Assembly (NCBI GenBank): GCA_963828465.1
Contig: CAWHEU010000006.1
Span: 1 to 29,616 of the forward strand
Origin: an uncultured Acidobacteriota bacterium
Lineage (GTDB): Bacteria > Actinomycetota > Acidimicrobiia > Spongiisociales > ZC4RG35
Length of the DNA: 29,616 nucleotides
Direction: 5' to 3'
Every line of letters starts with the position of its first letter. Position 1 is the first letter of the stretch. A model generated the notes under the pieces. That model was not told the DNA's origin. It saw only the letters and a program-made list of their open reading frames with translations, and ran no database searches. Below are positions 2,258-28,113 of this stretch, in pieces. The translations under genes and the position numbers were made by a program.

Positions 2258-2325
2258 GGGATTCGAGAGTACCGCATGCGTCTTACCGACTCGCCGTCAG
2301 AAACCCTTCGCAATAGGTTGACGCG

Positions 2326-2760: not shown

Positions 2761-3010
2761 CCGCCTGAAGCACCTGAATCTCAGAGGTCGGCCCAACGGG
2801 GGTGTCCAGATCGGCCCGGGCGGCGTCAACGAATATCAGGACATGGGGCCTGATCCTCCCGTCCTCGTCGAGCAGGTGGTTCTCCAACCCCGGTTCGCGG
2901 GAGAACAGGTTCTCGAGCACCTCGGCCAGGTTCTCGCCCTCGGCCTGGTGGCGCACCCCGCTGGTCACCGCCTGGGACAGGACGCGAGGGATCCGCACAG
3001 TGACACTCAT
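2747..3010 (-). CDS. MoaD/ThiS family ubiquitin-like protein
   Basis: 87 aa; VTVRIP start, LLDEDGRIRPHVLIFVD, C-terminal QAVSGG diglycine. Confidence 0.92.
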   Translation of the reverse strand: MSVTVRIPRVLSQAVTSGVRHQAEGENLAEVLENLFSREPGLENHLLDEDGRIRPHVLIFVDAARADLDTPVGPTSEIQVLQAVSGG

Positions 3011-4041
3011 GCGACGATGCTGACCGCCGCGATCCGGGGGAAGGATGCGTTCAATTCCTGCCAGGTGTCTCCGAGATCACGGGTGAGCCAAAGCTTTCCT
3101 CCTGACGTCCCGAAGCAGAATCCACCGTCGCCATCGCCGTCGAAAGCCCGTCGCAGCACACCGGTGAACTGAGGGGCCTCCGACCAGCCACTGCCGGAGA
3201 CGCGCCACGAGGAACCGTCGTCATCGGAGGCGTAGACGCTGAGTTTCCCACCTACGGGGACCCTGTTGTCCGATGACTCGAGAGGGATGGTCAGGAGACG
3301 GCCCGTGCCGGGGTGCCGCCACATGACGAACCCGAACCCGGCCGGCAGGCCGTCCTCGATCCGCTCCCAGTTGTCCCCTCCGTCGGTGGATCGGAAGACG
3401 CCTTGATGGTCCTGGCGCCACATGTGGTCCGGCTCGTCCGGATCGTGAGCCAGACCATGGACGCAATAACCCACCTCCGGTCGCTCACCGCCCTCGGCGG
3501 TGTCAACCGAGGGAATCCCGTCGTTCTTCGGCACCCAGGTGACGCCCTCGTCGTCTGACCTGAAGACGCCGACGGCGGAGATGCCGACCCACATGCCTCC
3601 ATTGCCGGAGAGGATGCGATGGGCACAAAGACCCCCCGCCCCCGGAGACCACTGGTCCCGGGTGTGGTGCTCGTTGAGGCTCGTCACCGGGTCCCAGCTC
3701 ATGCCCCCGTCTTCGGATGAGAAGAGACCCGCCTGAGCGACGCCGGCGAGGAGGCGGTCGCCCTCGTTGTGAAACGTCCAGATCTGCTCCATCTTGCGGT
3801 CCGACCCCTCGGGCCAGGTCGGAGGCGAGTCGCTCGGCTTCCAATCGAGCAGGTTCTCGCTGTGGTGCACCCCGACGCCGTACCAATTGCTGCCGGTGGC
3901 GGCGACACGAGCGCCACCGGTGGTCTGGCCGAAGGCGGTCACCTTCCACCCGGGGAACATCGGGCCATCGACCTGCCAATCTGAGCCCGACTCGGTGAGC
4001 AGATAGGCGCCTTTTTCGGTCCCCACCAGGATTCGCATCAT
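3007..4041 (-). CDS. BNR/Asp-box repeat beta-propeller (sialidase/glycosyl hydrolase-like fold)
   Basis: Five Asp-boxes (SEDGGMSW, SDDEGVTW, STDGGDNW, SDDDGSSW, TRDLGDTW); ILVGTEKG start; GGAGG 6 nt before ATG 4041; ATGA overlap with the MoaD-like gene. Confidence 0.88.
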   Translation of the reverse strand: MMRILVGTEKGAYLLTESGSDWQVDGPMFPGWKVTAFGQTTGGARVAATGSNWYGVGVHHSENLLDWKPSDSPPTWPEGSDRKMEQIWTFHNEGDRLLAGVAQAGLFSSEDGGMSWDPVTSLNEHHTRDQWSPGAGGLCAHRILSGNGGMWVGISAVGVFRSDDEGVTWVPKNDGIPSVDTAEGGERPEVGYCVHGLAHDPDEPDHMWRQDHQGVFRSTDGGDNWERIEDGLPAGFGFVMWRHPGTGRLLTIPLESSDNRVPVGGKLSVYASDDDGSSWRVSGSGWSEAPQFTGVLRRAFDGDGDGGFCFGTSGGKLWLTRDLGDTWQELNASFPRIAAVSIVA

Positions 4042-4053
4042 GAGCATCCTCCA

Positions 4054-4080
4054 ATCGACAATCGGACACTAATTGTCGAT
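4054..4080. promoter_or_regulatory. Perfect inverted repeat between divergent genes, candidate operator
   Basis: ATCGACAAT-N9-ATTGTCGAT. Confidence 0.5.
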
Positions 4081-5269
4081 CACCAAGCACTCGACTCGAC
4101 CCTTCAGCAGGTTCTCGCTCGCTGCTGTGACCGCCACGGCGATGGGTGTGGCCACGTTTGGTCAGAGTGCGTTTGGCGTGCTCGCCTCCAACCTGATCGA
4201 CGAATTCGGCGTGGACAGATGGCAGATCGGGATCCTGGTCTCGGCGAGCGGGTTCACCGGAGCCCTGCTCTCTCCGATATTCGGCCGCTTCACCGACCGC
4301 GTCGGCAGCGTCAGGTCCGTGATCGGGGTGCTGATCCTGGGGATGATCGCAATGGTTCTGGTCGCCGTTGCCCCGAACTACTTCGTCCTCGTCTGCGGTG
4401 CGCTCCTCAGCGGGGTTCCCAACGGATGGACCAACCCGGCCACCAACGCTCTCATCGTCGACAACGTCGTTGCCGGTGCTCGAGGCGTGATCACCGGCAT
4501 CAAGCAATCCGGGGTGCAGATGGCAGCGTTTCTCGGGGGCCTTCTGCTTCCAGCCCTTTCCGCGGCCACCAACTGGCGGCTGGCCTTTGCCTCCTTCCTG
4601 GTGTTCCCTGCGGTCGGGCTGGCGGGGATGTGGCGACGGCCTGAGGTCGATAGGCCACCCAGGATCGAGGGTGCTCCCGTCTCGCCCATCCCTACGGCGG
4701 TCAAGTGGATTGCGGTCTATGGCACGCTCATCGGCCTGGGAGTCTCCGCCACGACGACGTTCCTCCCTTTGTTCGCTGAGGAGAGTCAGGGTTGGACGGT
4801 GACTCAAGCCGGCCTCCTCATCGCCGGTGTCGGCCTGGTCGGCGTGATCGCCCGGATCACCTGGGGGTCGGCCTCGGAGCGATGGCTGGGACACGGTCGG
4901 ACGCTCCGCCTATTGGCGGCGCAGTCGGCCGTCGCCGCGCTGCTTCTCGCTTTGGCCTCGGCGGGGAGCCTGCCCTCCTGGGTGCTCATTCCGGCGGCCT
5001 TGCTGATTGGATCTGGTGCCGTGGCATGGAACGCGGTCGGGATGCTGGCCGTGATGGACTACTCGTTGCCTGAGTTGGTCGGTCGCGGCACAGGACTGGC
5101 GATGCTCGGGTTCCTGACCGGAATCGGCATTGGCGCCCCGCTGATGGGTCTGTCCGTCGATCGGCTCGGGAGCTACACCCCGGGCTGGGTGGTCCTGGCC
5201 AGCCTCTTCTTCGTGTGCGCGGTCGTCGCCGGCAGGATCCATCGCACCGGTACTCTCGCGCACGTTTGA
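4073..5269 (+). CDS. MFS transporter
   Basis: About 12 hydrophobic segments; motif [12 protein letters not shown]; [10 protein letters not shown]; second-half [12 protein letters not shown] start uncertain. Confidence 0.9.
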
Positions 5270-5934
5270 GATTGGTCATCGCCCGCTGCACGGTCGACTA
5301 CTCCGGCCGGGTCACCGCGCATCTTCCCGAGGCGGTGCGGCTGATCATGATCAAGGCAGACGGGACCCTCGCCATCCACTCTGACGGGAACGCCTCCAAA
5401 CCGCTCAACTGGATGGTCTCCCCAAACGTCGTCGAGACCTACGAGGACCGTTGGGAAGTGACCAACGGCAAGGGGGAAAAGCTGGTGATCGCCATCTCCG
5501 AGGTGCTGGAGGACGTGACCCACGCCCTGGGTGACGATCCCGGCTTGCAGAAAGACGGCGTCGAGGCCCATCTCCAGGAGCTACTCGCCGCTCGGCCCTG
5601 GGTGCTGGGAGATGGGCTCAGCCTGATCCGTCGCGAGTACCCCACCGACATCGGACCGGTCGACCTCCTCTGCGCCGATAACGAAGGGCGCGTGGTGGCC
5701 GTCGAGGTGAAGCGGAGGGGCGAGATCGATGGGGTGGAGCAACTCACCCGCTACCTGGAGCGATTGGGTCAGGACCCGCGACTGGGGCCGGTGCGAGGGA
5801 TGTTCGTCGCCCAGCTCATCACCCCGCAGGCTCAGGTACTGGCAGAGGCACGGGGGATCGTCGCGCTGGAGGTCGACTACGACGGTCTTCGCGACATCGA
5901 AGACACCGAGCTGCGCCTGTTCGATCTGCGCTGA
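5266..5934 (+). CDS. nucS: Mismatch-specific endonuclease NucS/EndoMS
   Basis: [67 protein letters not shown], near-terminal RLF. TTG 5266 overlaps the MFS stop. Confidence 0.96.
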
Positions 5935-5935
5935 C

Positions 5936-6400
5936 GTGTTCGACATCGTCTTCTACCGGCCGGAGATACCGCCCAATACGGGCAACGCCATGCGTCTGGC
6001 CGCCGTCACCGGATGCCACCTGCATCTCATCGCTCCGCTCGGCTTCGAGATGGACGACGCCAAGCTGCGCCGGGCCGGCATGGACTATCGGGAGAAGGCG
6101 AGTGTCAGCGTCCACGACGACCTGGAGAGCTGGCGGGCCTCCCGCGGGCCGGACCGGGTGTTCGCCTACACCGTCGATGCCGACGTGCTATTCACCGAAG
6201 TCGACTACCGGCCGGGTGATTGCCTCATGTTTGGCCCGGAGTCGGTCGGCCTGCCCGACGACGTCAAGGCGCTGGAGTGGGTGACGCAGTCTCTGCGTCT
6301 ACCGATGCGACCCGGCGTCCGCTCGCTCAACCTCTCCAACTCGACGGCGGTCGTGGTGTACGAGGCATGGCGACAGAACGGCTTCGCCGGGTCACGCTGA
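5936..6400 (+). CDS. trmL: tRNA (cytidine/uridine-34 2'-O)-methyltransferase, SPOUT family
   Basis: [43 protein letters not shown]; GTG start at 5936. Confidence 0.95.
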
Positions 6401-7735
6401 TCCTTGGGCAATCAACCTGAACGCGATCGCCTCTGAGAGCACCGCCTTGCCCAGATCGGCCAGATCCTGGCTCTCGTTCGGGGCGTGATAGGCGCTGGTG
6501 GGGTCACTGGTCCCTATCACCAGGATCGGGATACCCGGGTAGATCTCGGAGAAGGTGGAGATGAACGGGATGGACCCTCCAGCCCCCATGTGGACCGGCT
6601 CGGTCCCGAAGGCCTCTTTGAAGGCAGCAGACCAGGCCTCGACGGCGAATGTGTCCATGTCCAGGCTCGTGGCGTCGCCCAGCTCCTCATGGAAGAACTC
6701 CAACTTGGTGCCCCACGGGGCGTGGTCCTCGAGATGCTTCTTCAGTGCATCCCGTGCGGCGTTTGTGTCTTGACCTGGAGCTGTCCGCAGACTGACCTTT
6801 GCCCGTGACACAGGGACCAGTTGGTTGATTGCCTCCGACACGGGTGGCGCATCGAGGGCGAGCACTGACACCGCGGGCCGGGTCCAGATGCGGGAGGGGA
6901 TGGTCCCGGTGCCAATCTGCTCCAGACCGTCCACGCAGCCGGCGAGCTCTCGAGCCAGCGCTTCCGGGACATCGATCCCGCCGACCTCCTCGCTGACCAA
7001 GCCCGGGATGGCCACACAGCCATCTTCGTCGTGAAGTGTCGCCAGCAGACGGATCATGGCGGTCAGCGCGTCGGGGAATACGCCGCCATACGAGCCGGAA
7101 TGGACTGCCTCCTTCAGGGTGCGCAACTCGAACGAGAAGCCGACGATTCCCCGAAGTGAGGTGATGAATGCGGGCACCCCAACAGACCAGTTCCCCCCGT
7201 CACCGATGACGATGACGTCTGGGGCGAGAAGACTCGAGTACCGCTCCAGAATGCCGGCGAGGCTCTCTGACCCAGCCTCCTCCTCTCCCTCGAAGAAGAT
7301 CTGGACACCAACCGGGGGGCGGCCGTCGTGGGCTGCCACCGCCCCGAGATGCATCACCACTCCACCCTTGTCGTCGGCCGCGCCCCTCCCATATAGCCGG
7401 CCTTCCCGCTCGACGGGCTCGAACGGATCGGTGGTCCACTCGTTGGATGGGCCCGGAGGTTGGACGTCGTAGTGGGCGTAGAGAAGAAGGGTGGGAGCAC
7501 CTTTTGGCGCGGGGATCTGGGCGAACACCGCCGGGTTTCCTCCGTCCGCCTCCAGTAACTGGGCTTCCTCGAACCCGGCGCGCTCGAGCATCCCGACGAT
7601 CGTCTCCGCCGCCTCGTGCACCTTGGACTTGTCGAATCCGGAGGCGCTGACCGAGGGAAGTCTGACCAGGTCACCGAGTAACTCGGTGAGTCGGGGGAGG
7701 TCGGCGGCCACTTTGGCTCGTAGATCGTCGTTCAT
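6392..7735 (-). CDS. M20 family metallo-dipeptidase (ArgE/DapE-like)
   Basis: [45 protein letters not shown]; start at MNDDLRAKV. Confidence 0.93.
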
Positions 7736-7795
7736 CAGCCGAGCGTAACCACGCCCTTTGTCCCGAAGACTCGCAAGGTGGGCCATCATGGGGCC

Positions 7796-8576
7796 ATGCC
7801 CTCCTTTCGGCTGTTCGGGATCCCGGTGACGATTCGCCCGTCGTTTCTCGTGATCGCCGCTCTGATCGGGTTCACCAGCAGGAGACCGATCGTCTACCTG
7901 GTGGCCTGGGTGGCGATCGTGTTCGTCTCGATCCTCGTCCACGAGCTCGGCCATGCCATCACTGCCCGCTCATATGGTGCCGAAGTCGAGATCGAGCTCA
8001 ATGGCATCGGCGGGCTCACTAGTTGGTCGGTGCCGGACAAGGAGCTGGGCCCGGGGCAGCGGGCCCTGGTGGCGGCGGCCGGGTCGGCCGTCGGGGTCCT
8101 CTTTGGCGGACTGGTGTGGTTGGTCGGCCTGCTCACAGCTCCCGATGGTGAATTGGCCGGATTCGTGGTCAACAATCTCGTCCGGGTCAACGTCTTCTGG
8201 GGACTGATCAACTGGCTTCCGATCCGTCCACTGGACGGCGGCCATCTCTTCACTTCACTCCTGCAGAAGGTGATTCCCTCCAGGGCGGAGGTCATCGCCA
8301 ATGTCGTGTTCTTCATCACGGCGGTAGGCGCACTCGCATGGGCGCTGTGGACCCAGGCGATCTTCCTTGCCCTCATCGCGGGCTGGCTGCTGATGGGAGA
8401 GCTGACCCGGAACAGAGGCGGTCAGAGGCGGCCTCCCGCTCCGATCCCACAGATGACGTTCGATCCCCCGCCCAGCGAACGCCGATGCCCCGCCCGACCA
8501 GGCACCAGTGCCCGACGCCGATCTCGAGCCGCAGCCAAAGCCGGGGCCCGAGCCACAGGCCGAGCCCGAGCACTAG
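7796..8576 (+). CDS. Site-2 protease (M50) family membrane metalloprotease; probable indel near 8471
   Basis: HELGH and [11 protein letters not shown] motifs with TM helices. Removing one C gives a Pro/Glu tail ending PEPQAEPEH* at 8576; the uncorrected ORF ends at 8587. Confidence 0.88.
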
Positions 8577-8599
8577 CGGGCAAGTAGCTTCCCGCCACG

Positions 8600-9838
8600 A
8601 TGGACTTCGCCTACAGCCAGCGGGTCGAGGAGTTGCGGACGCGTCTGCTGACATTCATGGAAGAGGCGGTCTACCCGGCTGAGGCGGTGTACCAGCGGGA
8701 GATGGAGGAGTCGGGCAATCCCCATCATCACCCGGCTGTGATCGAGGAGTTGAAAGTCGAGGCCCGCAGCCGCGGGCTTTGGAATCTCTTCCTCCCCGAT
8801 TCCGAGCTCGGAGCCGGTCTCAGTGTTCTCGAGTACGCCCCGCTCGCCGAGATCACAGGTCGGAGCCCCGAGATCGCTCCCGAGGCCATCAACTGCTCGG
8901 CTCCCGACACCGGGAACATGGAGATCCTCCACTCGTTCGGCACCCCCGAGCAGAAGGAGACCTGGCTCGCGCCGTTGCTGGATGGCGAGTTCAGATCCTG
9001 CTTTTCGATGACAGAGCCCGATGTCGCCAGCTCGGACGCCACCAACATTCGCACCCGTATCGTCCGCGAGGGAGACATGTACCGGATCGCGGGTCGGAAG
9101 TGGTTCAGCTCAGGCGCAGCCTCGACTCGATGCAAAGTGTCGATCGTGATGGGAGTCACCGACCCCGATGCCGAACCGCACCGTCGTCAGTCGATGGTGC
9201 TTGTCCCGATGGACAGTCCCGGTGTGACAGTGGAGCGCGAGCCGACGGTCTTTGGCTATCAGGATCGGGGAGGGCACCCGCAGATCCGATTCGACGACGT
9301 GAGAGTCCCGGTCGCCAACCTCCTCGGCGAGCAGGGTGGGGGGTTTGCTATCGCCCAGGCCAGGCTCGGCCCGGGACGGATCCACCACTGCATGCGGGCC
9401 ATTGGCGCCGCTGAGCGGTGCCTCGACCTGATGGTGCAGCGGTCCCAGGCTCGTACCGCCTTTGGGCGCCCTCTGTCCGAGCAGGGGGTGATCCAGGAGT
9501 GGATCGCGGACGCCCGGATCAGGATCGAGCAAGCCCGTCTTCTCGTCCTCAAGACGGCGTGGATGATCGACGAAGTGGGAGCGAAGGCAGCCCGCACCGA
9601 GATCGCTGCGATCAAGGTGGTGACACCAGCGCTTCTCACCGATATCGCCGATCGCGCCATCCAGCTATTCGGGGCGGCGGGCTTCACCGGAGACTTCCCA
9701 TTGGCACGGTTCTATTCGATGGGGCGTTGGCTCCAGATCGCCGATGGGCCCGACGAGGTCCACCGCAGATCGGTTGCCCGGGCTGAATTGGGGCGACTCG
9801 GTCCCGGCGCGGTCCCAGAGCCCTATCCGTTCGACTGA
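8600..9838 (+). CDS. Acyl-CoA dehydrogenase (ACAD10/11, FadE2-like group)
   Basis: NCSAPDTGNME, FSMTEPDVASSDATNI, GRKWFSSG, RLGPGRIHHCMR, ADGPDEVH. Confidence 0.95.
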   Translation: MDFAYSQRVEELRTRLLTFMEEAVYPAEAVYQREMEESGNPHHHPAVIEELKVEARSRGLWNLFLPDSELGAGLSVLEYAPLAEITGRSPEIAPEAINCSAPDTGNMEILHSFGTPEQKETWLAPLLDGEFRSCFSMTEPDVASSDATNIRTRIVREGDMYRIAGRKWFSSGAASTRCKVSIVMGVTDPDAEPHRRQSMVLVPMDSPGVTVEREPTVFGYQDRGGHPQIRFDDVRVPVANLLGEQGGGFAIAQARLGPGRIHHCMRAIGAAERCLDLMVQRSQARTAFGRPLSEQGVIQEWIADARIRIEQARLLVLKTAWMIDEVGAKAARTEIAAIKVVTPALLTDIADRAIQLFGAAGFTGDFPLARFYSMGRWLQIADGPDEVHRRSVARAELGRLGPGAVPEPYPFD

Positions 9839-9898
9839 ATCCGCCCCAATCCGCCACCGGTTCGGCTCCGAATCATGTTTGGCATCGCGGTCCCAGCG

Positions 9899-9924
9899 GG
9901 AACGAAAAGCCTTGATGTTGCGTT
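9899..9924 (+). promoter_or_regulatory. Candidate ECF sigma (SigH/SigR/SigE-type) promoter of whiB
   Basis: GGAAC-N17-CGTT ending 15 nt before ATG 9940. Confidence 0.65.
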
Positions 9925-9939
9925 TACGGGAGTTCAGAG

Positions 9940-10218
9940 ATGGTTAGTCCTGTGACCTTCGACGTGAGGTTCTCGACATGGCGGGAGGATGCGGCGTGTC
10001 TCGACGTCATCGATGAGGTGTCGTTCTTCCCAGATGCCGAGGACTTGTCTGCCATCGCCCGGGCCAAGGCGGTCTGTGCCACCTGCCCGGTCGCATCTGA
10101 GTGCCTGACCTGGGCCATCGAGACCAATCAGAGCGAAGGCGTGTGGGGAGGTCATACTCCCAAGGAGCGCCGCTCGATCCGCCGCCGCTGGATCGAAGAG
10201 ATCGAACAAGCCTCGTAG
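9940..10218 (+). CDS. whiB: WhiB family Fe-S transcriptional regulator
   Basis: WREDAAC...FFP...AKAVCATCPVASECL...GVWGGHTPKERR: four Cys plus GVWGG. Subclass not assigned. Confidence 0.95.
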   Translation: MVSPVTFDVRFSTWREDAACLDVIDEVSFFPDAEDLSAIARAKAVCATCPVASECLTWAIETNQSEGVWGGHTPKERRSIRRRWIEEIEQAS

Positions 10219-10222
10219 ATTT

Positions 10223-10277
10223 CCTCCCCCAGGAGCGCAGCGACGTTGGGGGAGGTGGCCCGAAGGGCCGGAGGGGG
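10223..10277. repeat. REP-like palindromic intergenic element or bidirectional terminator
   Basis: CCTCCCCCA...TGGGGGAGG stem, then GGCCC-GAA-GGGCC hairpin and GGAGGGGG, between convergent genes. Confidence 0.55.
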
Positions 10278-10282
10278 TTTCC

Positions 10283-11275
10283 TTATCGCCTCTCCGCGGG
10301 CTCGTCGACGTCAGGCCCGTGCTCGGCGGCGATGTGGAGCAGCGGGTCACCCGGGTTGACCAGTGGGTTGAGGTTGCGGGCGATCACCCATCCCGAAGTC
10401 GTCGTCTTGACCCGAGTCGGTCTGACGCCGAATGCGTCCGAGATCCGGGCGACCTCATCACCCGCTTCGACACGGTCACCGAGCTCCGGCGAGATCTCGA
10501 CGAGCCCGCCACGCCGTGCCCTCATCCATCGAGTCCTCCGCACCAATGTGGTCGCGCCGGGCCTGGGAAGCCTCATGTCGACCAGCCCCATCGAGCGAAG
10601 TGTCCGCATGACTCCCTCGAAGCCCATAGAGATCGAATCCTCGTCGGTTCGATCCGCCTGGCCCGCTTCGTAGAGGAGCATCTTGATTCCCTGTTCGGCG
10701 GCTGCCTGCCGGAGTGAGCCATCACGCACCCGGGCCTTGATCGTGAACGGAGCGCCGAATGCCCGCGCCAGCTCGAGAGTCTCCGGATCATCGATGTCAG
10801 CTCGAAGCTGAGGAAGATTGGTCCGGTGGTTCGAGGCCGTATGGCAATCGATCCCGACCGAACAATGCGCCACGACTTCTGTCATGAAGAGATGGGCCAG
10901 ACGCGACGCGGTCGAACCGCGGGCGGAGCCGGGGAAGACGCGATTGAGGTCGCGGCGATCGGGGACATATCGGGAGCGGACCATGAATCCGAGCGGGTTC
11001 ACGATCGGCACCGCGATCACGGCGCCGCGCAAGGTCTTGGCATCGAGGGCCCTCATCACCTTGCGAACGACTTCGACTCCATTGATCTCATCGCCGTGTA
11101 TGCCGCCCGACACCCAAACGTTGGGCCCGGACGTGCGCCCGTTGATCACCGCGATTGGGAGTGAGGCCTCCGTGCCGGCGGGGAGGTGGGCGAAGGGGAG
11201 CTCGATCCTCATCTTCCGCCCGGGAGGGACTGTGACCTTGCCGATCGTTATCGGATCGTTGCGGGGGTCAACCAC
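10283..11275 (-). CDS. Succinylglutamate desuccinylase/aspartoacylase (M14-like) family protein
   Basis: [28 protein letters not shown]-terminal lipoyl-like segment ([14 protein letters not shown]). GTG 11275 overlaps the rimK stop. Confidence 0.92.
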
Positions 11276-12170
11276 GGCCGGATCGGGCCGCCGGCTCGTG
11301 GTCGGCGTGGTCCTCGATGAATTCGATGATCGCATCGGCGATGTCGATGCCGCTCGCCGTCTCGATCCCTTCCAGGCCAGGCGAGGAGTTGACCTCGAGC
11401 ACCATCGGCCCCGCGTCCGACTGGAGCAGGTCGACGCCGGCGACGTTCAATCCCATGGTCTTCGCCGCCCGCACCGCGGTGGCCCGCTCTGCCGCCGACA
11501 ACTTGATCGATTCGGCGTAGCCACCCCGATGGAGGTTCGACCTGAACTCACCGGGTGGGCCCTGCCGCTTCATCGCTGCCACCACTTTCCCTCCGACGAC
11601 GAACGCCCTGATGTCGGATCCTCGGGCTTCCTTGACGTACTCCTGGACCAGGATGTTGGCGTCGAGCTGGCGGAAGGCCGAGATGACCGAGTCTGCCGCT
11701 TTCCTCGTCTCGGCCAGCACGACACCGAGTCCTTGGGTGCCCTCGAGCAGCTTGACAACCACCGGTGGGCCGCCCACGACGTCGAGCAGTCCGTCGATGT
11801 CGTGAGTGGAATGGGCGAAGCTCGTCGTGGGGAGACCGACACCGGCGCGTGAGAGGAGTTGCAGCGATCGCAGCTTGTCCCGGGACCGGCTGATTGCCTG
11901 GGAGTCGTTCAAGGTGAAGACGCCTGCCATCTCGAATTGGAGGACCACCGCTGCCCCGTAGAAGGTATAGGTGGCACCGATCCGGGGGATCACGGCGTCG
12001 GGCCTCACCTCCTCCCCTCGAAACAGGATCTTCGGCGTCCTCGCCGAGATCTCCATGTAGCACCTCAGATAGTCGACTATCGCCACCTCGTGGCCCCGGA
12101 GCAGTGCAGCTTCTCGGAGCCTCTGGGTCGAGTACAGACCCGAGTTGCGGGAGAGGATGGCGAGCTTCAT
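11268..12170 (-). CDS. rimK: RimK family alpha-L-glutamate ligase (ATP-grasp)
   Basis: [65 protein letters not shown]. Confidence 0.96.
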
Positions 12171-12634
12171 TCGTTTTCCTGGGCCCGTCCCGGGCGTGCT
12201 CCCAGGTAGCTGCGACCGGGGTCGATGACAAAGTTGCTCCGCACCGCCCGCCGACCGAGGAGCATGCGAAAGCCCATTTCGTCCCGGCTGGTCAGATTGA
12301 CCAAGGCGTTCAGCTCCACCCCGGCCACCAGAACCCTGGTTCTTATGACCGGGCGCAGCTCACTTCGACCTCCGGGGTTCTTCACCTTCTTCTCCATTGC
12401 CAGGGGAGCCTCGCATTGGATGGAAGGCTTCCTCGATCTCTGCTTGGGATGGATCTCGAAGCGAACGTACTCGGTGCCGTCCACGTCGAACCGTTCGAGA
12501 TTGAATGCGTGGAGCGATGAGTTATCGGCACCGGTGTCGACCTTGACCTTCATCTCGGCAACACCGAGATCGGGCAGTTGGACCCACTCCCGCCAACCGA
12601 TGATCGCCTTGTGCTCGTCGGCCCGTCTACTCAT
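12167..12634 (-). CDS. RimK-associated retropepsin-like protease (RimB / 'ATP-dependent zinc protease' family)
   Basis: [33 protein letters not shown]; ATGA overlap with rimK. Confidence 0.92.
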
Positions 12635-12730
12635 ACCCGCACGACCGTTGACGGTCCTCTCCGTGATGGCATGACACCTGGATCACCGGCGGCATCGTAG
12701 AGATCGGAGAACCGGCTTCGGCGGGGCACA

Positions 12731-12913
12731 ATGATCAGGGTGAAGACCGGTCGACGCGAGAACCCGAAGAAGAAGGTGCCGGCCTGGCTGATGGGTCTCT
12801 TCTTCGCGGTGATCGTCTTCATCATCGTCCTGCTCGTGGTCAACGCTCTGGGCTACGGGGATGATCCCGCGGTCGGCGCTCTGGCAGACGGGGGACTCTG
12901 GCCGACCCGATAG
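12731..12913 (+). CDS. Small single-pass membrane protein, unknown function
   Basis: Basic N-terminus (RRENPKKK), one TM helix, LGYGDDP tail; fills the intergenic gap. Start may be GTG 12740. Confidence 0.7.
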   Translation: MIRVKTGRRENPKKKVPAWLMGLFFAVIVFIIVLLVVNALGYGDDPAVGALADGGLWPTR

Positions 12914-12928
12914 CCGCGCCCGCTTGGG

Positions 12929-14611
12929 CTATGTCGGCGGTGGGGGGATGGGATTGCCGCTGCAGTCGATGCCCTCTGCCGGCCTGTAGTCGGCGAGGAA
13001 GGTGTCGACGACGACCCTCCCGTCGGGGTAAGTGCGCTGCCGGTCGGTCTCCACATGGGTGCATGCCCCACGACTAGAGGAGCGCTGGTCGAGCTCTTCG
13101 ATCTCTATGTGCTTGGTCGAATACATGCTGACCGTGATCGACTCGTCCGTGTAGGACGTCCAGATCAGGATCGGGTGGTTGGTGGTATTGGTCATCACCA
13201 GGTCCGGGGCCGGGTTTGAGATCGTCGCCTCGCGTCCGTAGGGGTATCGGGAGAAGTAGAGGCTGTGGCTCCTGTACTCGACGAAGTCCATCCCGGCGAA
13301 GTAGGCAGCGTTGAAGATCGTCGTGGCGAACTGGGACACGCCCCCTCCGACCTCTTCGATCAGATGGCCCTGACGAATGGCGCCGGCGGAGAAGAATCCG
13401 TTCTCGACAGTGCGGGGACCGACGTACTCGTTGAGCGAGATCGTCTCCCCGGGCACCAGATAGACGCCGCGCACGATGTCGGCGATCCGCTGGATGTTCC
13501 TCACCCGCGTCTCACAGCAGCTGTGCGGCGTGGTGAACTCGCCCACCTTCTCCACTATCAGGCTGCCGTCGGCCCAGGCTGCCAGGGCGGGATCGACAGT
13601 CGGCCGCGACTGGAGCCCGAACGGGCCGCTCGAGCCGGAAAGGATCTGCTGGCCGAGCCACTTGCCCACCCCGGCCTCGCAGCAGACCGGGGGTGGGTCG
13701 CCCGGGGTGAGGACGGCGGGGACATCGTCGGTCACGGTGAACGTTGGCTCGACGAAGCTGCCCACCGGTCCGACGATTGTGTTCTCGAGCGTGGCATGAA
13801 GCGCGTCGCTGTCGAAGGCGACGCCGATCTCGCCACCGCCGATATCGAAGCGGAGATGTGACTGCAGGACGGCGGGGCTCAGTGTCGCGGTCTTGCCGTC
13901 CACCGAGATGTCGACCCCCTCACCGGTCTGGCCATTGAGCCGCTCGACGGTTTCTCCGGCGACCTCGTCAGACACGCTGGGGTGGATCTCCTCTACATCG
14001 ATGTCGAGGCGATCTGGGGGAGCGATGAGGTCGACTTCCCCGAGTTGATCCACTAACGAGTCGATGTTGGCCTCGGTCCCTATGACTCCGGGGATCAAGA
14101 CGAGTTGGCCACCGCCATCGGGCTCGATCTTTGGCTCGGTGACCACGACCGGAGTCAGCCCGGGGTGATTGTCGAGCGCCTTTCTTGCCTGCTCCGGGTC
14201 GAAGGCCCACTGCTCTTCGATTTCGTCGGTCGCCACCCCGCCAACGGCCCATGACGAGAACTGCCGCCACACCGAGCCCTCGTGTCGGGCGGCAAGAACG
14301 GCGGCCGCTGTGGCCTGCTGGTCGTACGAGAAGCCGATTGTCCCGAGGGGGACGGCGAGCTCACCTTCCCCGTAATCGATCATGACCTGCCGTTCGAGGA
14401 TCTCAGAGGAGCGATCGGCGACCGTCGACTGGACGCCGGCAGGGGTGACGCCTTCCATTGGCTCGCCCGCGTAGCTCACGTTGTTCGCAACGACCACACC
14501 GTCATTGGACACGTGTTGGGACCATCCCACCCCGGCAAGGGCGAACATGATCAGACCGAGCGCCAGGAACGCCCAGGAGAAGATGGAGAGCGGAGCAGCA
14601 TGCTTGGCCAA
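12929..14611 (-). CDS. VanW family membrane-anchored protein with putative peptidoglycan-binding region
   Basis: N-terminal TM; RVRNI, SLNEYVGPRT, GGGVSQFATTIFNAAYFAG, HSLYFSRYPYGREAT. Confidence 0.9.
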   Translation of the reverse strand: MAKHAAPLSIFSWAFLALGLIMFALAGVGWSQHVSNDGVVVANNVSYAGEPMEGVTPAGVQSTVADRSSEILERQVMIDYGEGELAVPLGTIGFSYDQQATAAAVLAARHEGSVWRQFSSWAVGGVATDEIEEQWAFDPEQARKALDNHPGLTPVVVTEPKIEPDGGGQLVLIPGVIGTEANIDSLVDQLGEVDLIAPPDRLDIDVEEIHPSVSDEVAGETVERLNGQTGEGVDISVDGKTATLSPAVLQSHLRFDIGGGEIGVAFDSDALHATLENTIVGPVGSFVEPTFTVTDDVPAVLTPGDPPPVCCEAGVGKWLGQQILSGSSGPFGLQSRPTVDPALAAWADGSLIVEKVGEFTTPHSCCETRVRNIQRIADIVRGVYLVPGETISLNEYVGPRTVENGFFSAGAIRQGHLIEEVGGGVSQFATTIFNAAYFAGMDFVEYRSHSLYFSRYPYGREATISNPAPDLVMTNTTNHPILIWTSYTDESITVSMYSTKHIEIEELDQRSSSRGACTHVETDRQRTYPDGRVVVDTFLADYRPAEGIDCSGNPIPPPPT

Positions 14612-14685
14612 GGTGCCCGGTCATGGTATTGGGATCTGGTCGTAGTGCCCGGCACCTGAGCCCACGATCATCCCCGCGCAAAGCC

Positions 14686-14715
14686 TTGACGGTCTTCTCG
14701 GCGCCGCTGTATGCT
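14686..14715 (+). promoter_or_regulatory. Housekeeping-sigma promoter of rpoBC
   Basis: TTGACG-N18-TATGCT about 165 nt upstream of rpoB. Confidence 0.7.
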
Positions 14716-14721
14716 GACCAT

Positions 14722-14879
14722 CGACCTACGGGTCCGGGACTGCCGCAGCGTTCGTCTGGACGAAGCCGATGTGGCGGTTTCGACAATTGAAGATTTCAAT
14801 TGGAGGCATGCTGACGCGTCTGTTAGCATGCCTTGTCTGCGTTACTTAGACCTGATCCGGATCCCTCAGGAGGCCCCCC
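14722..14879 (+). promoter_or_regulatory. Structured rpoB 5' leader
   Basis: Back-to-back hairpins at 14723-14734, 14761-14782, 14784-14802, 14804-14833 and 14851-14870; SD AGGAGG at 14868-14873. Confidence 0.55.
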
Positions 14880-17800
14880 TTGGTTTCGCGCGTTACTGAG
14901 CGCTTTTCATTTGGAAAAATCCCCGAAGTACTACCTCTTCCCGACCTCCTTGCAGTCCAACACGAATCCTTCAAGTGGTTCCTCGACGAGGGTTTCCGCG
15001 AGATCTTCGAAGAGATCAGCCCCATCGAGGACTTCACAGGTTCACTCGCCCTCGAGCTGACCGACCATCGCTTCGGCGAGCCTCAGATGAGCCTCGAGGA
15101 GGCCAAGGAGCGGGATTCCAACTACGCAATGCCCTTGTTCGTCACCGCCCGGTTCATGAACCGGCAGACGGGTGAGATCAAGGAGCAGCAGGTCTTCCTC
15201 GGAGACTTTCCGATCATGACCGACAAGGGCGTGTTCATCATCAACGGGACGGAGCGAGTCATCGTCTCCCAGTTGGTGCGGTCCCCGGGCATCTACTTCG
15301 ACAAGACCCCGGACAAGACCTCCGACAGGGAGATCTTCTCGGGCAAGATCATCCCGGGTCGCGGTGCGTGGCTCGAGTTCGACACAGACAAGAAGGACAC
15401 CATCGGTGTCCGGGTCGACCGCAAACGCCGGCAGTACATCACGGCCTTCCTCAAGGCGCTCGGTATCGCCGAGACGGACGAGGAGATCCTGGCGATGTTC
15501 GACGGCGCCGAGTCGATCAAGAACACCATCGAGAAGGACACCGCCCATTCCAAGGAAGAGGCGTTGCTCGACCTCTACCGCAAGTTGCGTCCTGGTGAGC
15601 CCACCACGGTCGAGTCGGCCCGCGGTCTCATCCAGACTCTTTTCCGCAACCCGAAGCGGTATGACCTGACCAGGGTCGGTCGCTACAAGATCAGCCAGAA
15701 GTACCGGGAGGACTCCCCGACCGATTACCGGGCCGAGGGCCTCCAGCTGTTGCGCGACGAGGACATCATCGACGCCATCAAGTACCTGGTGGCGCTTCAC
15801 GCCGGCCAGACCACGATGACGACGCACACCGGGACCGAGGTCGCGGTCAACACCGACGACATCGACCATTTCGGCAACCGGCGCATCCGCACAGTCGGCG
15901 AGCTGGTCCAGAACCAGGTTCGTGTCGGGCTAACCCGTCTCGAGCGAGTGGTCCGGGAGCGCATGACGACCCAGGACCCGGATGCGATCACCCCGCAGAG
16001 CCTGATCAACATCCGTCCGGTCACGGCTGCGATCAAGGAGTTCTTCGGGACCTCTCAGCTGTCGCAGTTCATGGACCAGCCCAACCCGCTGGCCGGGCTC
16101 ACCCACCGTCGCCGTCTCTCGGCGCTCGGGCCTGGTGGGCTCTCACGTGAGCGGGCCGGGTTCGAGGTCAGGGACGTCCACCCCTCTCACTACGGGCGGA
16201 TGTGCCCCATCGAGACGCCGGAGGGGCCGAACATCGGTCTGATCGGCTCCCTCGCCTCGTACGCCAGGGTCAATGAGTTCGGATTCATCGAGACCCCCTA
16301 CCGCAAGGTCGAGTCCGGCAAGGTCACCACCAAGGTCGAGTATCTGACTGCGATCGAGGAGGAGCGATTCGTCATCGCCCAGGCCAACGCCCCACTCAAG
16401 GAGGACAGCACGTTCCAGAACCCGAAGGTGCTGGTGCGCCGCGCCGGCGGCGGTGGAGACGTCGAATACATCCCGGCCAAGGACGTCGACTACATGGATG
16501 TCTCCCCGAAACAGATCGTTTCGGTCTCGACCTCACTCATCCCGTTCCTCGAGCATGACGATGCCAACCGCGCCCTGATGGGCTCGAACATGCAGCGTCA
16601 GGCGGTGCCACTCCTCACGGCCGATGCCCCGCTGGTCGGGACCGGAGTCGAGCAGCGAGCCGCTCAGGACTCGGGCGACATGATCGTCTCTCCGATCATC
16701 GGCGAGGTCGTCGAGGTCACCGGTGACGAGATCGTCATCAAGGAGAAGGAGACCAACAAGAAGCACACTTTCGTGCTCGACAAGTTCCGCCGCTCCAACC
16801 AGGGCACGTGCATGAACCACAAGCCGCTGGTCCGGGAGGGCGACACGGTCAAGGTGGGCGATGTCCTCGCAGACGGGCCTTCCACCGAGACCGGTGAGCT
16901 CGCGCTCGGCCGGAACCTGCTGGTTGCCTTCATGCCTTGGCAAGGTCACAACTTCGAAGACGCCATCATCATCTCCGAGCGTCTCGTCAAGGACGATGTC
17001 CTCACCTCGATCCACATCGAGGAGCACGAGATCGACGCCCGTGACACCAAGCTCGGCGCGGAGGAGATCACCAGGGACATCCCGAACGTGCCCGAAGAGG
17101 TCCTGGCCAACCTCGACGAGGAGGGGATCATCCGGGTCGGCGCCGAAGTGGGCCCGGGCGACTATCTCGTGGGCAAGGTCACCCCCAAGGGTGAGACCGA
17201 GCTCACCCCCGAGGAGCGCCTCCTGCGCGCCATCTTCGGTGAGAAGGCTCGCGAAGTCCGTGACACGTCGCTCAAGGTCCCGCATGGCGAGACCGGCAAG
17301 GTCATCGCCGTCAAGGTCTTCAAGCGGGCCGAGGGATACGACCTACCACCCGGGGTCAACGAGCTGGTTCGGATCTACGTCGCTCAGCAACGCAAGATCT
17401 CTGAGGGAGACAAGCTGGCCGGCCGTCACGGCAACAAGGGAGTCATCTCCAAGGTCCTCCCCGAGGAAGAGATGCCGTTCCTGGCCGACGGCACCCCGGT
17501 CGACATCATCCTGTCGCCTCTTGGTGTCCCCTCCCGCATGAATCTGGGTCAGGTCCTCGAGACTCACCTCGGCTGGGCCGCCGCCCAGGGCTGGGAGCCC
17601 TTCGACGGGAAGAGCCCGGCGGTTGGGGGAGTCAAGCCGTGGACCAAGGTGGCGACGCCGGTATTCGACGGCGCCCGCGAGGACGAGATCATGCAGGTGA
17701 TCCAGAGTGCCCGACCCAACCGGGACGGCGATCGCCTGGTCGGTGACGACGGGAAGGCCTACCTAATCGATGGCCGCACAGGCGAGCCCTTCGACAGCCC

Positions 17801-18257
17801 GGTCACCGTCGGATACATCTACATGTTGAAACTGGTCCATCTGGTGGACGAGAAGATCCACGCCAGGTCGACCGGCCCCTACAGCATGATCACCCAGCAG
17901 CCGCTCGGTGGTAAGGCCCAGTTCGGTGGTCAGCGGTTCGGCGAGATGGAGGTGTGGGCCCTCGAGGCCTATGGCGCCGCCTATGCCCTCCAAGAGCTGC
18001 TCACCATCAAGTCCGACGATGTCCAGGGCCGGGTCAAGGTCTACGAAGCGATCGTGAAGGGCGACAACATCCCCGAGCCAGGCATCCCGGAGTCGTTCCG
18101 GGTGCTGGTCAAGGAGATGCAGAGCCTCTGCCTCAACGTGGAGATGCTCTCCGCCGGTGAGGAGGTCGAGCTGAGGGAGCTCGAGGAGGAGTCCTATCGC
18201 TCGGTGGAGACCCTCGGCATCGACCTGAGTCGACCCGAGCGCCCAGATAGTGAGTAA
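14880..18257 (+). CDS. rpoB: RNA polymerase beta subunit
   Basis: [53 protein letters not shown]; TTG start after AGGAGG. Confidence 0.99.
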
Positions 18258-18301
18258 CGAGTTTCACACCACCCAACCACCCAAAACCACGAACGAAGTG
18301 A

Positions 18302-22231
<3,930 letters not shown>

Positions 22232-24452: not shown

Positions 24453-26567
24453 ATGAGCAACGGAAACGCTGCCATATCGCATCTGCGCCAGGTGCCGCTG
24501 AGCCGGACCCGAAACATCGGGATCATGGCTCATATCGACGCGGGCAAGACCACTCTGACCGAGCGCATCCTCTATTACACCGGCCGTAATTACAAGATCG
24601 GTGAGGTCCACGAGGGCGCCGCCACGATGGACTGGATGGAGCAGGAGCAGGAGCGTGGCATCACCATCACGTCCGCCGCAACCACCTGCGTCTGGCACGA
24701 GCACCTGATCAACATCATCGACACCCCGGGACACGTCGACTTCACGGTCGAGGTGGAGCGGTCCCTCCGTGTCCTCGATGGCGCAATTGCGGTGTTCGAC
24801 GGCGTCGCCGGCGTCGAGCCCCAGTCAGAGACCGTGTGGCGTCAGGCCGACCGTTATGGCGTGCCCCGCATCTGTTTCATCAACAAGCTGGATCGCACCG
24901 GCGCCGACTTCTACTTCGACGTCCAGTCGATCATCGATCGACTCGGGGCACGTCCGCTCGTGCTCCAGCTCCCGATCGGGACCGAGGCCGACTTCACCGG
25001 CGTTGTCGACCTGGTCGAGATGAAGGCCCATATCTGGAAGGGTGACGACGGGAAGCACTGGGACACCAGCGATATCCCGGCCGACCTCGCCGACCGCGCC
25101 GCCGAATACCGGGAGAAGCTGCTCGAGGCGGTCGCCGAGACCTCCGAGGAGCTCCTCGACGCATATCTCGAGAACGGCGACCTGACCTCCAAGGAAATCC
25201 AGGAGGGTGTTCGCGCCGGCACCATCGCCCGCGATTTCACCCCCGTGTTCTGTGGGTCCGCCTTCAAGAACAAGGGCGTCCAGCTTCTTCTCGACGCGGT
25301 GGTCGCCTATCTGCCCAGCCCCGCCGACCTGCCGGCGATCAAGGGCTTCCGGCCCGGCGACGAAGAGGTGGTCGTCGAGCGCATGCCCGAGGACGCCGAG
25401 CCTTTCGCGGCCCTCGCCTTCAAGATCATGTCCGATCCACATGTCGGCAAGCTGACCTATTTCCGGGTGTACTCGGGCCACGCCGCCAAGGGCGACACGG
25501 TCCTCAACACCACGACCGGGCAGAAGGAGCGTCTCGGGCGAATCCTCCGGATGCACGCCAACTCCCGTGAGGACATCGACGATGTGTTCGCCGGAGACAT
25601 CGTGGCGGGAATCGGGTTCAAGAACACCACGACCGGGGACACCCTGTCCGACCAGGGGAAGGCCATCCAGCTCGAGTCGATGGAGTTCCCCGCTCCGGTC
25701 ATCTCGGTGGCAATCGAGCCCAAGACCAAGTCCGACGACGAAAAGCTCTCCGAATCGCTGCACCGACTCTCCGAGGAGGACCCGACATTCCTGGTCAGGA
25801 CCGACGAGGAGACCGGGCAGACGATCATCTCGGGCATGGGCGAGCTCCATCTGGAGATCCTCGTCGACCGCCTCCTTCGCGAGTTCAAGGTGGATGCGAC
25901 CGTGGGCAAGCCCCAGGTGGCCTACCGGGAGACCATCCGTCGGGCGGTGGAGAAGGTCGAGTACCGCCATGTCAAGCAGACCGGCGGCAAGGGCCAGTAC
26001 GCACACGTCGTGATCAATCTCGAGCCCACCGGCCCCGGCGGCGGCTACGAGTTCGTCGACCAGATCAAGGGCGGCAAGGTGCCCCGCGAGTACATACCGT
26101 CGGTCGACGACGGGATCGAGGAGGCGCTCGACCAGGGCATCGTCGCCGGCTACCCGCTGGTCGATGTCCGGGCAACCCTCACCGACGGGTCCGCCCACGA
26201 CGTCGACTCCTCGGAGATGGCTTTCAAGATCGCCGGGTCGATGGCATTGCAGGAGGCCGCCCGCAAGGCCGGCGTCAAGCTGCTCGAGCCGGTCATGGAG
26301 GTCGAGGTGACCACCCCCGACGAGTACATGGGTGATGTGATCGGCGACCTCAACTCCCGCAGGGGCAAGGTCGAAGGCATGACCCAGCGTGGCAACAGCC
26401 AGGTGATCAGGGCCCAGGTGCCCATGTCGGAGATGTTCGGGTATGCCACCGACCTCCGTTCCAAGACACAGGGACGCGCCACTTATTCAATGCAGTTTCA
26501 CTCATATCAGGACGTTCCCGACTCGATCGCAGAAGACATCGTGGCGAGCCGTCGCGGGCAGTCCTGA
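24453..26567 (+). CDS. fusA: Elongation factor G
   Basis: [41 protein letters not shown]. Confidence 0.99.
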
Positions 26568-26616
26568 AGAGTCAAAGAGAAGACGGATAGAGAAGAGATA
26601 GAGGAGCCAAGAGGAA

Positions 26617-27807
26617 ATGGCGAAGGCGAAGTTTGAGCGTACGAAGCCGCATGTGAATGTGGGGACGATGGGTCATATTGATCATGGGAAGACGACGTTG
26701 ACGGCTGCGATTACGAAGGTTTTGTCGGAGCGGGTGGGTGGTTCGAATCAGATGACGTCGTTTGACATGATTGATAAGGCGCCTGAGGAGCGTGAGCGGG
26801 GGATCACGATTCAGATTGCTCATGTGGAGTATGAGACTGAGGCTCGTCATTATGCGCATGTGGATATGCCGGGTCATGCTGATTACATCAAGAACATGAT
26901 TACGGGTGCGGCGCAGGTGGATGGGGCGATTCTGGTGGTGTCGGCGGCTGATGGTCCGATGCCTCAGACCCGGGAGCATGTGTTGTTGGCCCGTCAGGTG
27001 GGGGTGCCTTCGATTGTCGTGTTTTTGAACAAGGTGGACATGGTTGATGATGAGGAGCTGTTGGACCTGGTCGAGCTCGAGGTCCGGGATCTTCTGACTG
27101 AATATGAGTTTCCGGGGGATGAGGTTCCTGTGGTCCGGGGGTCTGCGTTGAAGGCGTTGGATGGGGATGAGGCGTCTTCTGATCAGATCATGGAGTTGAT
27201 GACTGCGGTTGATGATTATGTGCCGGAGCCGGATCGGGATACCGAAAAGCCGTTTCTGATGTCGATCGAGGATGTGTTCACTATTACGGGTCGGGGCACG
27301 GTGGTGACTGGTCGGGTGGAGCAGGGGATTTTGAAGGTGAATGAGGAAGTGGAGATCGTGGGGATCCGTCCTACTCATAAGACGGTGGCGACCGGGATCG
27401 AAATGTTCCGCAAACTTCTCGATGAGGGGCGGGCGGGGGACAATGTGGGGGTCCTGCTTCGTGGGGTGGGTAAGGATGATGTGGAGCGGGGTCAGGTCCT
27501 GGCCAAACCAGGGAGCATCACTCCTCATACCGATTTCGAAGCTCAGGTGTATGTGCTGACCAAGGAGGAGGGGGGCAGGCATAACCCGTTCTTCCCCGGG
27601 TATCGACCCCAGTTCTATTTCCGGACTACCGATGTGACCGGTGCCATCCAACTGCCTGAGGGGACTCAGATGGTCATGCCCGGAGACAATACGGAGATGA
27701 CCGTGGAACTGATCGCTCCCATCGCCATGGACGAAGGACTCCGTTTCGCTATCCGTGAAGGTGGCCGCACCGTCGGCGCCGGCCGAGTCGTAAAGATCGT
27801 CAAATGA
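26617..27807 (+). CDS. tuf: Elongation factor Tu
   Basis: [34 protein letters not shown]. Confidence 0.99.
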
Positions 27808-28113
27808 GCGACCAGCAGAAGATCCGCATCCGCCTCAAGGCGTACGACCACAACGTGGTCGACGAGTCTTCGAAGAAGATCACCGAGACCGTGGTGCGGA
27901 CCCAGGCCAAGGTAAAGGGACCGATTCCTTGCCCACCGAGATCCACCGGTACTGCGTCATCCGCGGGCCACACGTGGACAAGGACTCGCGCGAGCACTTC
28001 GAGATGAGGATCCACAAGCGCCTCATCGACATCCTCGAGCCGACCCCCAAGACGGTCGACTCACTCATGCGTCTCGAGTGCCCGCCGGCGTCGAAGTGGA
28101 GCTGAAGTTGTGA
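27804..28113 (+). CDS. rpsJ: 30S ribosomal protein S10 (two -1 indels, near 27927 and 28078)
   Basis: [12 protein letters not shown]...GPIP / [35 protein letters not shown] / [10 protein letters not shown]. Confidence 0.96.

Follow-up and report, generated by a model that had tools for sequence, protein, structure and literature searches.

Polar enrichment of G- and T-ending codons in paired tuf genes of Acidimicrobiales

GC-biased gene conversion (gBGC) is a non-adaptive drive that originates from the unequal handling of mismatches in heteroduplex DNA and can override codon preference and fix slightly harmful amino-acid changes. Other processes that alter duplicated or recombining DNA are repeat-induced point mutation (RIP) in fungi, which converts C to T on both strands of duplicated sequences and destroys genes, and the polarity gradients and mismatch disparity of meiotic conversion in yeast; these, like transcription-linked strand asymmetries, are eukaryotic meiotic or genome-wide phenomena with small effects. 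Here we analyze the tuf gene for elongation factor EF-Tu in a window of 29,616 nucleotides, the whole contig C6 (CAWHEU010000006.1) of a 3.07-Mb, 29-contig metagenome-assembled genome (MAG) from the order Acidimicrobiales, designated G000 and closest, among named organisms, to Acidimicrobiia. In this gene, identified by its open reading frame (ORF), Pfam matches and third-position composition at 26617..27807 on the plus strand, the codons of the 5' part end almost without exception in the keto bases G or T.

Concerted evolution of tuf genes by gene conversion has been described for 29 orders belonging to 6 phyla, Actinobacteria among these (PMC6053082). That study mentions no compositional skew, and a search of it for 'skew' and 'GC content' was without a hit. 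In Mycobacterium smegmatis, oligonucleotides that create G-G, G-T or T-T mismatches were incorporated more than 500-fold less than all others in a nucS-dependent manner, and the endonuclease NucS corrects G-T, G-G and T-T but ignores A-C, C-C and A-A (PMC11551767). A role for NucS in shaping paralogues is suggested only in the discussion of a 2026 preprint on M. tuberculosis (PMC13061034). Our literature search, with subscription journals outside its coverage and supplements not seen, yielded no description of a keto skew of tuf. Although tuf concerted evolution itself is well known, this points to a keto-versus-amino, strand-polar conversion bias as undescribed so far.

The third-position skew of tuf

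In the following, K3 denotes the proportion of codons with G or T in third position, and C3, G3, T3 and A3 are the corresponding proportions for the single bases. Expected counts of G/T-ending codons were derived from the tuf amino-acid sequence and the combined codon usage of rpoB, rpoC and fusA. An exact recount agrees with the initial annotation of the window in that every one of codons 1–49 ends in G or T, and that codons 1–89 comprise 87 G/T-ending and two C-ending triplets (codons 50 and 63) and none ending in A, where 40.4 G/T-ending codons are expected (sd 3.8, z 12.3). The skewed zone extends over codons 1–300 (26617..27516, plus strand), with 261 G/T-ending codons against an expectation of 135.4 (z 17.6), while codons 301–396 hold 47 of 96 against 42.0 (z 1.3). 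By sextile of the gene, K3 amounts to 0.97, 0.92, 0.85, 0.85, 0.68 and 0.41, and leucine is encoded by 10 TTG and 7 CTN triplets in codons 1–240, but by no TTG and 9 CTN thereafter. The third positions of the entire gene are 0.18 C, 0.49 G, 0.29 T and 0.05 A. Its neighbors rpoB and rpoC (14880..22231, plus strand; C3 0.50 and 0.48) and fusA (24453..26567, plus strand; C3 0.52, K3 about 0.43) have the C-ending usage ascribed to them earlier, with third positions of 0.48–0.52 C, 0.35–0.38 G, 0.08–0.09 T and 0.05 A.

The borders of the skew are sharp. The last 60 codons of fusA have a K3 of 0.50, the sequence past the tuf stop codon has values of 0.41–0.44 in all three phases, and the skew sets in at the tuf ATG, fades toward the 3' end and ends with the gene. 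An onset at the ATG and a weakening in 3' direction had been noted initially, but the skew is not simply gone at the 3' end: it is reversed. Within the last 33 codons (27706..27804, plus strand) only 8 end in G or T, with 14.3 expected (P 0.005), and 7 end in A, with 1.9 expected (P 0.003), leaving a surplus of A/C-ending codons. Computed per gene, the K3 of 3,591 crude ORFs in the genome averages 0.466 (sd 0.042), as compared to 0.78 for tuf. A scan of 76,658 non-overlapping 80-codon windows in six frames placed the 99.99th percentile of K3 at 0.84, and a value of 0.975 was reached by two copies of tuf alone. Note that an antisense open frame of 359 codons (26572–27651, minus strand) lies in register with tuf; it exists because A-ending sense codons are lacking (no TTA, CTA or TCA), and its presence does not speak for a gene.

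With a GC content of 0.565 against 0.63–0.64 in its neighbors, tuf might be taken for a xenologous gene with alien codon usage, and a chimeric assembly might be suspected because the MAG contains redundant contigs from several strains as well as indel errors of single bases. The gene product is the normal EF-Tu in its native fusA-tuf-rpsJ operon that had been annotated, with 396 residues, an intact frame and matches to all three Pfam domains, PF00009 (GTP_EFTU, 8.3e-65), PF03144 (D2) and PF03143 (D3). Both junctions are confirmed by contigs of other public runs: fusA-tuf is spanned by contigs from two studies (X1 record 3 and X7 record 27, with 2 differing letters each) and tuf-rpsJ by a contig from an RNA run (X15 record 15, 2 differing letters), so that a misassembly of the tuf region is excluded. 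The same pattern is found in single-contig assemblies. On a tuf protein tree from the survey described below, which largely tracks family codes, the skewed genes do not form one clade, and the skew state changes at least 11 times, with 4 of the changes forced by well-supported branches. A single imported tuf and a misassembly are thus both refuted, and we regard foreign origin or chimerism as an extremely improbable source of the skew. The adjacent rpsJ (27804..28110, plus strand) is unskewed, and its frame is broken by two single-base deletions. Public contigs have one extra base near 27926–27928 and one at 28078 relative to the window; because they carry both bases lacking here, the broken frame is an assembly error and not a pseudogene. 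Of the comparison with public runs, we relied on bridging contigs and indels alone.

The second tuf copy and its distribution across the order

A second, near-identical tuf gene, whose existence had been predicted from the skew, is present on contig C29 (C29:67864-69051, minus strand) in the context tRNAs-tuf-rpmG. It differs from the window copy in 33 of 1191 bases (97.3% identity) and in 1 residue and shows the same skew; rpmG behind it is unskewed, with a K3 of 0.47. The homology of both copies reaches from about 30 nt upstream of the ATG, where a flank alignment defines a 5' limit of partial similarity in the ribosome-binding region (26586..26616, plus strand), to the stop codon and no further. 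The first 323 bases are identical, and the differences per sextile are 0, 2, 7, 4, 12 and 7 in this genome and 0, 1, 9, 14, 16 and 2 in G012. This 5'-to-3' gradient of identity matches the K3 gradient from 0.97 down to 0.41, and a homology that is limited to the coding sequence and most perfect at its 5' end is as expected for ongoing conversion. With about even confidence we infer that the skew is caused not by selection or mutation but by a polar, strand-specific and keto-favoring bias in gene conversion between the tuf copies.

If this is so, the skew should accompany concertedly evolving pairs. A survey of 151 genomes from the same order with a completeness of at least 90% yielded tuf matches in 80; genus relatives and five genomes reached via named loci were added, and the DNA of every full-length tuf was read. 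Note that the counts include the unpublished genomes G018, G027, G038 and G171, on which the conclusions do not depend. Copy status was assignable in 66 Acidimicrobiales genomes. Near-identical pairs were skewed in 41 cases and unskewed in 1, while genomes with a single mid-contig copy or a divergent pair were skewed in 7 cases and unskewed in 17, and the comparison of one-copy and two-copy genomes that had been suggested at the outset thus links the skew to concertedly evolving pairs (41/42 versus 7/24). Another 17 genomes, whose copy status could not be assigned, either have tuf at the end of a contig or have a second copy in pieces only. All of them are skewed, as would be expected if assemblies break at repeats. 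Five of the 7 skewed exceptions were searched again with tuf DNA, and in four of them (G131, G084, G126 and G052) a different contig proved to carry a fragment of a second tuf; no such fragment was found for the single tuf of G159 in this search. A further exception, G023, is only 76% complete. The pair in G173, 90% identical and skewed in both copies, was counted against the hypothesis, although the MAG consists of 370 contigs, one of the copies lies at the start of a contig and the two may belong to different strains, so that the pair does not lend itself to interpretation.

The association is also seen in the 30 assemblies of at most 10 contigs. Here, 26 genomes have near-identical pairs, all of which are skewed (K3 0.71–0.98), and one genome with a full and a truncated copy is skewed as well; the one divergent pair and the two single copies are unskewed. 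All three divergent pairs, in G045 (84.7% identity), G062 (86.7%) and G098 (85.1%), lack the skew. G062 has a K3 of 0.45–0.48, and G048, whose pair is 99.9% identical, has a K3 of 0.85. Families f1, f2 and f12, and also genus g17, include both skewed and unskewed members. In most pairs the copies are 99–100% identical within a genome, although EF-Tu proteins differ by 10–20% between families, and paired copies are sisters on the tuf tree. With two genomic contexts, a likeness that is greater within a genome than between species and a similarity bounded by the gene, these are concertedly evolving tuf duplicates.

Outside the Acidimicrobiia, the K3 of tuf lies within about 0.05 of the neighboring fusA in most loci. 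The largest excess, of 0.11–0.15, is modest, concerns G3 and was seen in three loci from Acidobacteriota and Nitrospirota and in one alphaproteobacterial locus. Among these phyla, L078, L101 and L081 (Acidobacteriota, Nitrospiraceae) have a tuf G3 of 0.49–0.61 against 0.30–0.36 in fusA with no increase in T3; here too the shift in codons is specific to tuf, but it is weaker and of another kind. A separate observation concerns G102, which has a third tuf copy (L220, G102:C13:172621-173805) with 3 in-frame TGA codons; its differences from the functional copies are 0, 1, 3 and 5 in the first four sextiles, followed by 67 and 36.

Substitution spectrum, competing explanations and a possible mechanism

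In all 65 skewed tuf genes the skew is strongest at the 5' end. It begins at the start codon with a mean K3 of 0.977 over the first 20 codons and does not fall below 0.72 before alignment column 380; the final 20 codons have a value of 0.38, as compared to 0.34 in unskewed genes. In these last 20 codons A-ending triplets are enriched (0.132 versus 0.044), in line with a drive of opposite direction at the 3' end. Bases other than the wobble base are affected as well. In G041, leucine is encoded by 33 TTR and no CTN codons, while most unskewed genomes have 0–3 TTR and 23–30 CTN, and the tuf start codon is GTG with an altered N-terminus. Counted from the unskewed consensus, amino-acid-changing replacements of A or C by G or T in the most extreme lineages outnumber the reverse by 27:1 in G041, 23:2 in G128, 22:4 in G058 and 17:2 in G152, while the unskewed controls sum up to 52:79. 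The skew therefore acts at the nucleotide level and on all codon positions.

These data bear upon the possibility of selection on the tuf message, in which a high demand for EF-Tu would favor both two identical copies and G/U-ending, C-poor codons, for instance because these leave the 5' mRNA with little structure or set a certain rate of translation, such that copy number and skew would share one cause. The onset at the start codon and the 5' maximum are what such selection might produce, and genes for S-layer-like proteins, whose expression is likely to be very high, have a comparable gradient in the absence of near-identical copies. However, conserved residues and even a start codon have been changed, with the 27:1 ratio of G041, and at the 3' end the rarest class of codons, those ending in A, has become more frequent. 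Three genomes keep two tuf copies that are divergent, and yet unskewed (G045, G062 and G098), and single-copy tuf genes retain an ordinary C-ending usage (C3 0.53–0.62). Other highly expressed single-copy genes do not share the bias either: in three genomes with a tuf K3 of 0.93–0.98, the neighboring rpoC, fusA and eight ribosomal-protein genes (rplC, rpsC, rplP, rplK, rplA, rplJ, rplL and rpsJ) have values of 0.48–0.60 and no gradient. We thus consider selection an unlikely cause.

A strand-specific mutagenesis of single-stranded DNA during transcription or recombination, by deamination of C and A, has to be weighed as well, as changes from C to T and from A to G on the coding strand would both raise the content of G and T. 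Both tuf copies are co-oriented with replication, with dnaA located between the inverted copies in 5/5 complete genomes of family f10 and with an agreeing GC skew of contigs C6 and C29; coding-strand and leading-strand effects are therefore inseparable here. Conversion tracts of M. tuberculosis, furthermore, show an excess of T>C according to the preprint (PMC13061034). The initial annotation had proposed exactly C-to-T and A-to-G changes, but transversions turned out to be as common as transitions. At fourfold sites in 8 pairs, C of the unskewed orthologues stands opposite G in 359 cases and opposite T in 265, and the replacement changes in G041 comprise 12 A>G, 10 A>T and 5 C>T. In weakly skewed lineages G3 rises first and T3 is still low. 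Deamination associated with transcription should produce C>T and A>G only and be shared by co-transcribed genes, but fusA directly upstream, for which we assume co-transcription, is unskewed, as are the single-copy tuf genes. An origin in deamination is thus very unlikely.

Returning to a bias in gene conversion, the following scheme would account for the pattern. Gene conversion would keep the two copies alike, and on the coding strand the conversion, or the mismatch handling associated with it, would favor G or T at the expense of A or C. This advantage would be greatest at the 5' end of the homology unit and inverted over the final few dozen codons. Acting again and again for a long time, the drive would outweigh the usual preference for C-ending codons at almost all synonymous sites. 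The bias might stem from a NucS-type repair that acts on the nascent or incoming strand wherever a G-T, G-G or T-T mismatch forms, a possibility that we put forward tentatively and with some doubt. In synthesis-dependent strand annealing the newly made strand would be the one corrected, and donor alleles that form the amino-amino mismatches A-C, C-C and A-A would escape correction. The geometry of resection would then leave every strand with an excess of keto bases upstream of the break and of amino bases on the downstream side, resulting in a gradient from 5'-keto to 3'-amino that is bounded by the unit of homology. Such a model fits the axis of the bias, its polarity, the 3' reversal and the requirement for a partner. 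The idea of repeated conversion with strand-biased mismatch handling, which was raised in the initial annotation, finds partial support in the second copy, the homology limited to the coding sequence and the association with pairs, while its deamination and RIP-like components are not supported.

The gene nucS for the mismatch endonuclease EndoMS/NucS lies in the same window as tuf (5215..5934, plus strand), with a PF01939 match at 5560–5922 and matches to both NucS_N and NucS_C at 5215–5931. A profile search for MutS_V gave a match in 0/5 genomes tested, G000 among them (MutL was not searched). Of the tested genomes with tuf, those in which NucS was found comprise 57 skewed and 12 unskewed ones, as opposed to 2 and 6, respectively, where the search for NucS was negative, with a naive Fisher P of 0.0016 that treats relatives as if they were independent. 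The G/T versus A/C axis coincides with the mismatch set of NucS and the gene is close at hand, but a dependence of the skew on NucS is unproven given the skewed genomes G102 and G130. The apparent lack of NucS in G030 may reflect an incomplete genome, since a genus-mate has the gene.

The window genome contains further repeats that can be compared to tuf. Of the top six ORFs by 80-codon K3, two are a DUF222/HNH gene and one that contains tandem repeats internally; the others are both tuf genes and a tandem pair on contig C11. In this pair of paralogous membrane-protein genes (C11:10200-12403), a stretch of about 210 codons is 100% identical and has a mean K3 of about 0.66, in detail 0.80, 0.63, 0.67, 0.63, 0.83, 0.67 and 0.37, as compared to 0.40–0.47 in the diverged flanks. 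The pair is a second case in this genome, again with the high values at the 5' end. Two older repeat pairs in the genome show no skew, and neither does a repeat on contig C4 treated below; with genes that remain intact, a general, RIP-like attack on repeats, as had been suggested by analogy, does not apply. Note that the MAG mixes close strains, with contig-length duplicates of 85–99% identity on many contigs (for example C14/C5, C12/C2 and C1/C25) that render the repeat census noisy. Independently, a 5'-high K3 was observed in two DUF222/HNH genes, C13:38021-39164 (plus strand; 0.73, 0.88, 0.65 ... 0.24) and C18:332689-333771 (minus strand; 0.73, 0.82, 0.70 ... 0.38), which are about 28% identical to each other, while other family members are without it. 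Family members are about 30% identical, with one pair at about 91% with indels, and as no link to conversion was shown, we rejected this gradient as a conversion effect.

Beyond this genome, four giant surface-protein genes with SLH and Calx-beta domains in family f10 have a K3 of 0.8–0.93 at the 5' end that falls to 0.0–0.2 at the 3' end over 1800–2400 codons. Three are tandem paralogues on the minus strand of locus L231 (G058:C1:478001-498000; genes 1520-8737, 8817-14432 and 14598-20000) and one is located on the plus strand of L232 in G128 (1072-8262). A periodic pattern of G or T at every third base over 41 positions was far more common in family f10 and in G041 than two tuf genes explain; it serves as a pointer only and not as a count, as mismatch settings varied between scans and the pattern also catches GNN-rich proteins, antisense C-ending genes and tandem repeats. 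In the window genome no other gene of at least 400 codons has such a gradient. A more general keto drive may exist in Acidimicrobiales, in which repair confined to G-T, G-G and T-T mismatches on the new strand would render recombining homologous units, including the giant S-layer paralogues, G/T-rich toward the 5' end and A/C-rich toward the 3' end, but this extension is speculative and we consider it possible rather than probable.

Several observations weigh against conversion bias in tuf, its proposed mechanism or its generalization. The raw copy-status counts overstate the association since relatives are not independent, and an independent-pairs test with 4 pairs on well-supported branches was underpowered, and we claim no significance for it. 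In G030 a 99.4% identical pair has a K3 of only 0.55. A 626-bp repeat on C4 that is 98–100% identical has a K3 of 0.37, the same as the rest of its gene, and for this reason we also rejected the idea that this lagging-strand repeat carries a mirror-image A/C skew. The three tandem SLH/Calx-beta paralogues are just 70–76% identical and no repeats of 90% identity or more were found in the SLH/Calx-beta loci examined, so that a K3 gradient like that of tuf can exist without evidence of recent conversion; these genes may reflect either the drive via unseen partners or some cause other than conversion. With regard to the mechanism, the K3 sextiles in G041 are 1, 1, 1, 1, 1 and 0.91, a keto skew that extends nearly to the stop codon, and strongly skewed lineages thus lack the centre-symmetric profile predicted by the simplest annealing model, which misfits their near-complete skew. 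NucS was not found in the skewed genomes G102 (96% complete) and G130, nor in two further species from the genus of G130. Finally, tuf conversion in Salmonella is reported to start uniformly along the gene (PMC5485169), which leaves the polarity without precedent.

Significance and comparison with known systems

Biased gene conversion is known as a force of GC versus AT, and a polar version of keto versus amino, if true, would be a new force on bacterial genes that links the mismatch specificity of NucS to genome composition. In EF-Tu a non-adaptive drive would then beat codon usage and even protein sequence, and a general keto drive would erase codon optimization in the most abundant protein of the cell and change conserved residues and a start codon. 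In these lineages tuf would mislead both as a phylogenetic and barcoding marker, a role in which it is in wide use, and as a reference that codon indices assume to be 'optimally' coded. The pattern is directly testable with two-copy reporters in a wild type and a nucS deletion strain.

The closest described system is the concerted evolution of tufA and tufB in Salmonella and E. coli, which shares with the present case the str-operon and tRNA-tuf contexts, the homology limited to the coding sequence and the likeness within a genome. It differs in that identity and skew are polar here and synonymous sites are rewritten, while initiation in Salmonella is reported to be uniform (PMC5485169). The mismatches recognized by NucS/EndoMS, G-T, G-G and T-T, are exactly the keto-keto ones (PMC11551767), but the enzyme is known for the repair of replication errors and was not found in two skewed genomes. 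A drive from mismatch handling that is able to override codon preference is common to gBGC and to the proposed bias. However, the axis here is G/T versus A/C, and the effect is strand-specific and polar within the gene; converted tracts under gBGC gain G+C, whereas tuf has a GC content of 0.565, with a T3 that rises from 0.09 to 0.29 and a GC3 that falls from about 0.86 to 0.66. As in RIP, the sequence change is tied to duplicated DNA, but it leaves the protein intact, raises both G and T, includes transversions, affects one strand and spares most other repeats, and it is thus not a RIP-like repeat-induced mutation. With the meiotic polarity of yeast, finally, the tuf pattern shares a 5'-high gradient and would share an outcome set by the type of mismatch; those effects, however, are small and either eukaryotic meiotic or genome-wide, whereas in tuf almost every synonymous site of a single bacterial gene has been replaced.

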